64,000 bases of DNA, taken from Eledone cirrhosa (Eukaryota). The stretch lies in assembly GCA_964016885.1 (NCBI GenBank), contig OZ024742.1:183334001-183398000 (forward strand), read 5' to 3'. This document shows, piece after piece, positions 35,326 through 36,137 of this stretch. Within the stretch, counting starts at the first letter, position 1. The number at the start of each line of letters is the position of its first letter. Below the pieces are notes generated by a model. That model made no database searches, was not told the origin of the DNA, and was given only the letters and a program-made list of their open reading frames with translations. Position numbers and translations under genes: made by a program.

Positions 35326-35740
35326 GTATATATATATATATATATACATATGTTTATATATACATATATATAAACATATATATTTATATATAAGTATGTA
35401 TGTATGTATACGTACATACATATATGTATACAGACGTACAGTAGTATGTATATATATATACATACATGCACACACATATATATGCACGTATCGATTTACC
35501 GAACATTTATTATAATGCTTGGTTTGTTCGTTTGTAAACAAACAAACAGTCCGAATTACGCCGTACAGTGTTTAGGCAACCACGTCACCTTTTTTTTTCC
35601 GTTTCATTCTATTCCATTTATCGTTTTCGGTGCGCCCAGCCGACTGAACTCACTCGATATGCAAATTAGGCTGCTCAGCCGTTAATATGCATAAGGAAAT
35701 TATATACTTTCAGACATTCAATCATCTGACAGGAAGGTAT

Positions 35741-35783
35741 ACGTTGCTGACGATAGCTAATAAGCTTGAAACTAGTACAACGT
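35741..35783 (+). ncRNA. Minimal type I hammerhead ribozyme, tandem copy 1
   Basis: ACGTTG-CTGACGA-tAGCT aata AGCTt-GAAA-CTAG-TA|CAACGT; predicted cleavage after 35777. Confidence 0.85.
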
Positions 35784-35984
35784 TCCTTTGTCAGTGTTGA
35801 ACAAAAAAGGTAACGTGGTTGCCTAAACACTCTACGGCGTAATTTCGTTTCATTTTTTCAATTTATCGTTTTTGGTGTGCCCGGCCGATTAACTCACTCG
35901 ATATGCAAATTAGGCTTCTCAGCCGTTAATATGCATAGGGAAAATATATACTTTCAGACGTTCAATCATCTGGCAGGAAGGTAT

Positions 35985-36027
35985 ACGTTGCTGACGATAG
36001 CTAATAAGCTTGAAACTAGTACAACGT
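35985..36027 (+). ncRNA. Minimal type I hammerhead ribozyme, tandem copy 2
   Basis: Identical to copy 1; predicted cleavage after 36021. Confidence 0.85.
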
Positions 36028-36137
36028 TCCTTTGTCCGTGTTGAACAAATGAGCAACGATGGTTGCTAGACACTACGGCTTAATTCGGGATGTTTGTTTA
36101 CAAACACACCTAGCATTATAATAAATGTTCAGTGAAA

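Follow-up and report, generated by a model that had tools for sequence, protein, structure and literature searches.

The window analysed here is a 64-kb stretch of a 3.0 Gb genome (G000:C3:183334001-183398000). It contains two 43-nt type I hammerhead motifs of identical sequence, placed in the same orientation and 244 nt apart, as a sequence-only reading of this DNA had already described; their cores start at 35747 and 35991 (Table 1). The direct units that carry them contain no ORF of at least 150 aa, again in agreement with that reading. Across the whole window, 22 matches to the hammerhead core were found versus 1.39 expected. An Rfam scan of the window at gathering thresholds returned no hammerhead; its one tRNA-like match, at threshold (18787-18844, 29.3 bits), is likely the head of a tRNA-derived SINE.

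Table 1. Features of the locus and its neighbours, in positions of the 64-kb window. Monomer positions are counted from the cut site of the natural 420/422-nt monomer.
Feature	Position	Strand	Remark or basis
(TA)n-rich tract receiving the 3' end of the inverted arm	35324..35390	.	sequence; likely insertion target
Inverted 5'-truncated monomer copy, subfamily B, positions ~24-217, ending at 3'-end site 1	35390..35594 (edges approximate)	-	alignment
Unit 1: monomer 250-420 then 1-65; B backbone with A-type patch over the ribozyme	35597..35840	+	alignment, subfamily letters
Hammerhead 1	35741..35783	+	43-nt motif; predicted cut 35777/35778
Hammerhead 1 with extended, bulged stem I	35717..35801	+	folding, alignment covariation
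63-nt identical block	35730..35792	+	equals 35974-36036; rare variant common to 35780/36024
AATT microhomology: monomer position 65 (B) joined to 248 (A)	35841..35844	+	creates the 244-nt spacing
Unit 2: monomer 248-420 then 1-115, of subfamily A and without its natural 3' end	35841..36136	+	alignment
Hammerhead 2	35985..36027	+	same sequence as hammerhead 1; predicted cut 36021/36022
LINE-type reverse transcriptase gene fragment, presumably RTE-like; neighbour outside the element, cutting off unit 2	36135..36838	+	sequence
5'-truncated element that we take to be Penelope-like from its motifs; neighbour outside the element, with its own, different hammerhead at 33330-33358	33330..35323	-	motifs

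Each predicted ribozyme consists of a stem I of 6 bp, a stem II of 4 bp over a U.U mismatch and a stem III of a single base pair within the palindrome ACUAGU. Both the 1-bp stem III and the U.U at the base of stem II are weak features, the latter being absent from the earlier description of these hammerheads. The extended stem I proposed in that description folds in unit 1 (z -2.58, with 3 of 200 shuffles equally good), but is interrupted by one break, at 36037, in unit 2. When both units were folded together, hammerhead 1 was not formed. It had also been held that only the 43-nt ribozymes are identical and that the remainder of the units differs; the units are indeed about 90% alike overall, but the identical block extends to 63 nt. 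This identity likely arose from gene conversion (unit 2 into unit 1) or mosaic copying. No special function has to be invoked for the identity of the ribozymes: throughout the family the core hardly varies, and unit 1 carries a unit-2-type patch.

Inverted arms do exist, with pairings of 80% (35495-35540 with 36091-36136) and 88% (35540-35565 with 36074-36099), but they are not the ~90-bp inverted termini that had been proposed. The left arm corresponds to monomer positions 39-214 over 35396-35582 at 85% identity; it reaches about 100 nt beyond 35495, where the element had been thought to start, and then enters (TA)n. It is better matched by the inside of unit 1 (35554-35599 with 35799-35844, 93%). 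On the right, unit 2 stops at monomer position 115, where the LINE-type fragment begins. In contigs of unspecified kind from one sample, possibly the one from which the genome derives, loose ends at 35594, 35600 and 36136 continue as normal monomer; contig depth in the bin of the AATT join is 9,600-11,700, versus 120,000-1,400,000 elsewhere in the element, roughly a 10- to 100-fold drop, again for one sample and an unspecified kind of contig. The locus is a damaged, rearranged, composite copy, and what had been taken for "terminal inverted arms" is, on the left, an inverted 5'-truncated copy and, on the right, a break. A link between the repeat and the ORF of the neighbouring Penelope-like element, a frame of which (34240-35571) crosses the left arm, was considered and rejected: the family of that element carries a hammerhead and a pLTR of its own, and the frame extends into the arm by low-complexity read-through.

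The 244-nt segment between the predicted cuts (35778-36021) had been put forward as the mobile unit. A search with the junction pattern that gives the 244-nt spacing found two matches in 3.0 Gb, the second of which is an inversion breakpoint that runs into TA after approximately 15 nt. The distance between units 1 and 2 is 0.08-0.11, compared with medians of 0.017 within insertions (319 pairs) and 0.074 between them. Diagnostic letters in unit 1 are B-type at 35607-35646 and from 35806 onwards, and A-type or shared at 35744, 35780 and 35788. The pattern of a B backbone with an A-type ribozyme yielded 20 genome matches; among the 12 inspected, 10 of the 11 copies from outside the window have a stem I that is not A-type, and a dedicated subfamily of this kind was rejected on that basis. 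Because no subfamily has that mix, the B/A combination of the window is local. Folded as a circle, the 244-nt piece is no more stable than its shuffles (z -0.9), and it lacks both 3'-end site 1 and the 5' arm of the hairpin at site 2; two natural monomers folded as circles gave z values of -7.2 and -9.2, with none of 40 shuffles reaching their stability. Both the 244-nt monomer and the supposed terminal arms arose by local accident and are not a mobile unit.

The repeat family itself is abundant. The exact 33-nt ribozyme core has 9,643 matches in the genome and a 19-mer just downstream of the cut has 14,664, with no match to the reversed control in either case; a first similarity pass returned 6,514 candidates, of which 40 were scored. 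The monomers of a natural five-ribozyme array measure 420 and 422 nt and contain a TA-rich stretch in their interior. Within the first 100 cores of the list, close same-strand neighbours were spaced 420-453 nt apart in 12 of 12 cases, at odds with a mobile unit of 244 nt. A further 66 internal full monomers, obtained by a method that lists full-length units only, measure 381-464 nt (mostly 420-435) and are arranged head to tail with no ORF between them. The natural monomer is thus an ORF-less unit of about 420-435 nt with one type I hammerhead. Insertions range from dimers to 11 units, with arrays reaching 5-11 units. Several long arrays have higher-order periods (period 2 at L057 and L199, period 3 then 4 at L184), which points to later duplication or to multimeric templates.

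Variation in the ribozyme follows the subfamilies. Over 182 segments, the variable stem I pair is U.G in 81, A-U in 28, G.U in 14 and U-A in 4, both window copies being among the last. An alignment of 19 distinct sequences revealed changes on both sides in 10 of 29 pairs, a level that 0 of 500 shuffles reached, the shuffles ignoring relatedness. Most of these changes come from a single sequence of a sister family; within the family, only stem I pair 35744/35780 clearly changes on both sides. Two relaxed ribozyme patterns recovered the sister family as well as mutated copies.

We surveyed the ends of the copies at 155 loci, comprising 191 runs that span a cut site, with the window excluded and with non-random sampling (best hits, genome-order lists from contig C1 and variant patterns). 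It was found that the 3' ends of 167 of the 191 runs fall at two sites 56 nt apart, with 92 at monomer positions 206-222 and 75 at 255-278; an exact end at 217 or 273 is seen in 111 runs, 103 of which enter TA. The 5' ends are scattered, inversion points differ between copies, and many copies have no inverted arm. Head-to-head inverted pairs number 70; in 49 both ends lie at a site, and 44 of the 49 use a different site for each arm. Some copies, often multimers, start at monomer positions 384-391, where the ribozyme begins, and further ones at 247-256 in the end hairpin (L049, L054, L057, L060, L067, L106 and L048, loci picked by core); these may be pause sites of the reverse transcriptase. 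No real Penelope ORF was present at the 5' side of any of the 191 sampled runs, the lone raw match proving spurious on inspection, and many runs extend one full unit upstream while remaining ORF-less. In the main family, approximately 6-7 runs have a Penelope-like protein match just beyond their 3' side. We read these as neighbours: the two that can be placed lie past a TA tract, and it is the far end of the protein that they resemble.

The surveyed copies display the traits of Penelope-type insertions, namely two 3' ends with a one-armed tail, variable 5' truncation, an inverted 5'-truncated copy and an AT-rich or microsatellite target. An ORF combining reverse transcriptase and GIY-YIG between pLTRs, as in an autonomous Penelope-like element, was not seen in the sampled copies, nor were fixed terminal inverted repeats common to the copies, as in MITE or TIR elements. 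Target-site duplications, which exceed 4 bp in animal non-LTR retrozymes when present, would be hidden by the (TA)n that the copy ends enter. Published work describes the inverted 5'-truncated copy and the one-sided tail as hallmarks of Penelope-like elements (PMC8557442, PMC3846280), and work on an anole element reports two internal start sites, nicking of both strands and AT-rich targets in vitro (PMC11167929). Because the two 3' sites, the use of one site by each arm and the (TA)n match the Penelope "tail" signature, the family copies are likely pasted in by Penelope-type enzymes.

The sister family was detected via a related hammerhead beside one copy, as a 466-nt homologue (monomers of 466-469 nt) whose global alignment with the main monomer scores 289, against a shuffle maximum of 129.5. 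Its best matches are 98-99% identical, and it is younger than the main family. A relaxed pattern returned 11,360 matches, mostly from the sister family among the first 100 listed; places to find it include L103:2700-3135, L154-L197 and G000:C1:5738327-5752443. Its arrays exceed 30 units, and its stem II carries a compensatory change. Here too the 3' ends concentrate at two sites, in this case 70 nt apart (58 of 60 runs), with an end hairpin shared between the families, and 22 of the 23 scorable inverted pairs (29 in total) have one arm at each site. No real Penelope ORF was found at the 5' side in the same 60 runs, in which a single match was spurious. Variants were scored at 37 loci, with a 20-unit array excluded: 14 variants in 11 loci are present in every covering unit, 10 of the 14 across both arms, with a further 7 partly shared and 139 single. 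With its precise start sites, conserved hairpin and near-identical arrays, the sister family is the best material for work on the mechanism, as circular and linear templates could be distinguished directly.

We examined which form of the RNA is copied. Adding 7 bases before the cut to the search pattern keeps 8,635 of 11,171 matches, or 0.964 per base, and the corresponding figure for 9 bases after the cut is 0.970 per base. No copy begins exactly at the cut in any of three sets (0/34, 0/150 and 0/44), although a few ends lie within 3-8 nt of it. A cut linear monomer as the usual template was rejected, the apparent starts at the cut being alignment breaks at mutated ribozymes. The copies run through the ribozyme and none starts at the cut; the usual template is therefore an uncut multimer or a circle. 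We lean slightly towards a circular RNA, and regard a long uncut multimer as a substantial possibility that falls somewhat short of an even chance. One young insertion of the main family contains three variants that are not fixed at the other loci of the subset; each occurs, over both arms, in every one of its 8-9 covering units. Variants shared in this way inside one insertion are as predicted if one template is read repeatedly, which they suggest; transcripts of source arrays that were homogeneous beforehand are also compatible with them. The partly shared variants and the arrays of period 2 to 4 point to DNA-level duplication or multimeric templates as well. Several published results speak against the circle: the anole enzyme used unprocessed RNA and needed no ribozyme cleavage (PMC11167929), 8 of 9 Xenopus retrozyme dimers remained uncleaved in vitro (bioRxiv 10.64898/2026.07.22.740005), cleavage of axolotl ribozymes sharing these weak features is poor in monomers and improves in dimers (PMC7229834), and Penelope hammerheads are slow even as dimers (reviewed in PMC6765202).

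No partner enzyme was found, and none of the three Penelope-like families examined in the window resembles the repeat. Local alignments of the repeat with the surroundings of the 17 other hammerhead-core matches in the window scored 16-26, with shuffle maxima of 21-33, in line with the earlier statement that it is unrelated in sequence to these families. A GIY-YIG search of the flanks of all retrieved loci gave 82 matches, and inspection of the best three per group revealed no ORF-bearing relative; none was found with the two relaxed ribozyme patterns either. A genome-wide look for attachment to a Penelope ORF had been suggested along with the sequence-only reading; none of the sampled copies is an ordinary pLTR of that kind. 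In one Penelope-like family of the window, 12 of 32 copies end at +33 of the anchor and 13 of 32 at +91 to +96, in TA, so that the sites are approximately 58-60 nt apart. Pfam gives weak RVT_1 matches for two of the Penelope-like proteins and none for two others, so that the Penelope-like labels rest on motifs.

As features of retrozymes, we used a type I hammerhead in each unit, head-to-tail repeats of ~150-450 bp, no attached ORF and a highly self-paired monomer; a 2026 survey, in the sections available, lists repeats of 51-972 bp (bioRxiv 10.64898/2026.07.22.740005). The family has a hammerhead in each unit, head-to-tail units of 381-464 nt, no ORF (in a sample, not a census) and a highly self-paired natural monomer. 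The retrozyme-like class assigned by the sequence-only reading stands, with 9,643 cores in the genome and no real 5'-side ORF in the 191 sampled runs, and judged by its motif, repeat and fold features the family is a putative new member of the animal non-LTR retrozymes. A literature search, with most subscription journals outside its coverage, found no paper on this repeat family. As in the axolotl ribozymes described in PMC7229834, stem III is a single base pair with a palindromic tetraloop (Amex1) and there is a U.U at the base of stem II (Amex2); in contrast, the monomer here is at the long end (420-466 nt), contains an internal TA-rich hairpin and unites the two weak features in a single ribozyme. 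For retrozymes, the sections consulted of PMC7229834 and bioRxiv 10.64898/2026.07.22.740005 mention neither a pair of fixed 3' ends nor inverted arms of which one bears a tail, nor (TA)n targeting.

The likeness to Penelope-like insertions, as described in parts of PMC8557442, PMC3846280 and PMC11167929, comprises the two 3' ends, the one-arm tail, the inverted 5'-truncated copy, partial tandems, an AT-rich or (TA)n target, a minimal hammerhead upstream of the start sites and microhomology joins. Differences are the lack of an ORF here, a tail of 56 nt (70 nt in the sister family) compared with 30-40 bp in those papers, and the absence of sequence likeness to the families examined. Non-autonomous head-to-tail Penelope derivatives are known from Chlamydomonas (PMC8557442, in part). 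Chlamys elements such as MRC1 are similarly non-autonomous, Penelope-moved and inserted as multicopy head-to-tail units; they are green algal, however, and generally share 3' sequence with an autonomous partner, whereas here each unit has a hammerhead and no partner was found. Penelope-like elements have been proposed as the mover of retrozymes (PMC7229834; bioRxiv 10.64898/2026.07.22.740005, sections of each), and the mechanism of mobilisation is said in the latter to remain to be worked out. The link has so far been drawn through ribozyme type, co-occurrence and pLTR similarity (PMC7229834, in part); here the insertion footprint itself is Penelope-type, and it is so in two families.

We consider it highly probable that the locus is a composite, damaged copy of an abundant ORF-less tandem repeat, likely moved by Penelope-type enzymes, and that the 244-nt spacing is a local join of two subfamilies. 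The alternative that started this work holds that the locus is a self-contained mini-element with terminal inverted arms, which excises and propagates a 244-nt circle. It draws on two intact, identical hammerheads in the same orientation 244 nt apart, and chemically a transcript of the locus, if one is made, could yield a 244-nt cut product. We nevertheless regard it as very improbable: the junction recurs only once, at an inversion, the arms are not termini, the units derive from two subfamilies, the circle folds unremarkably and is missing 3'-end site 1 together with part of the hairpin at site 2, and hammerhead 1 does not form in the two-unit fold. A DNA-level origin, with the hammerhead as a passenger of a Helitron/Helentron-type element, a MITE-type element or a satellite spread by recombination, is equally remote in our view. 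DINE-1/Helentron repeats combine a TA-rich tract, hairpins and tandem arrays, and the family resembles them in each of these respects; the higher-order periods of the long arrays would also suit such an origin. Fixed 3' ends, scattered 5' ends and variable inversion points fit target-primed reverse transcription, however, and not two defined termini, dispersed short copies dominate, and the ribozyme stems are kept by compensatory change between the families.

It is unlikely, though less so, that the copies are 5'-truncated pLTR stumps of an unsampled autonomous Penelope-like element, the tandems being partial-tandem pLTRs. All features of the ends are Penelope-type, true Penelope-like stumps are common in the window, Penelope hammerheads typically have a minimal palindromic stem III (PMC6765202), and the loci examined number only about 155, from a family of more than 10,000 copies. 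The 66 ORF-less head-to-tail full monomers, the arrays of 5-11 units and the lack of a real 5'-side ORF in 191 runs all speak against it, and the sister family behaves alike. An autonomous relative may exist; what has been amplified is the ORF-less unit.

Under the reading of a Penelope-moved tandem repeat, transcripts would be made from tandem copies, and adjacent hammerheads would pair by way of the palindrome ACUAGU and cleave as dimers; ligation would then close the released monomers into circles. The (TA)n target would be nicked on both strands by a Penelope-like protein, which would prime two cDNAs on a single RNA, one at each internal site. Synthesis of each cDNA would continue across the ribozyme, in some cases going round more than once, and the truncated ends of the two would finally be linked. 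In the window, an inverted insertion of type B was likely fused to a type A copy at AATT, by deletion or template switch, the unit 1 ribozyme was likely overwritten by that of unit 2, and a later break would have removed the right end. We tentatively propose, at just under an even chance, that the two families, with more than 20,000 ribozymes, record the way in which animal retrozymes are mobilised: nicking of both strands at (TA)n by a Penelope-type enzyme, priming at two sites, and rolling round a circular RNA across its re-ligated hammerhead, so that tandem and inverted arm would arise together in a single event. If true, this would be evidence, on the scale of a genome, that target-primed reverse transcription can proceed by rolling circle, with the two start sites and the common hairpin identified. 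Taken alone, the locus is just one more damaged copy, and the significance lies in the family.

Several further repeats were noted. Two Penelope-like families of the window have hammerheads of their own (one at 26569-26713, 33330-33358 and 52626-53459, the other at 40325-40352 and 60594-60621), and in both, copies stop within the beginning of the family's own ORF, at either of two sites ~55-60 nt apart, and run on into (TA)n. At least three more hammerhead-bearing stump families are present, several as short inverted pairs ending in TA (19138-19385, 32219-32268, 48785-49038, 9241-9277 and 60106-60147). A third Penelope-like family (57408-58509) yielded 71,887 first-pass candidates, the best 150 at 92-100% identity, and no canonical hammerhead occurs in the 800 nt downstream among the copies listed. 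Elsewhere in the genome, a long satellite-like array of a variant of the hammerhead repeat, with units of ~470-610 nt, occupies G000:C3:12272007-12293217 and beyond. Directly after the LINE-type fragment, the window contains a 440-nt palindrome with perfect arms of 126 nt (36841-37280).
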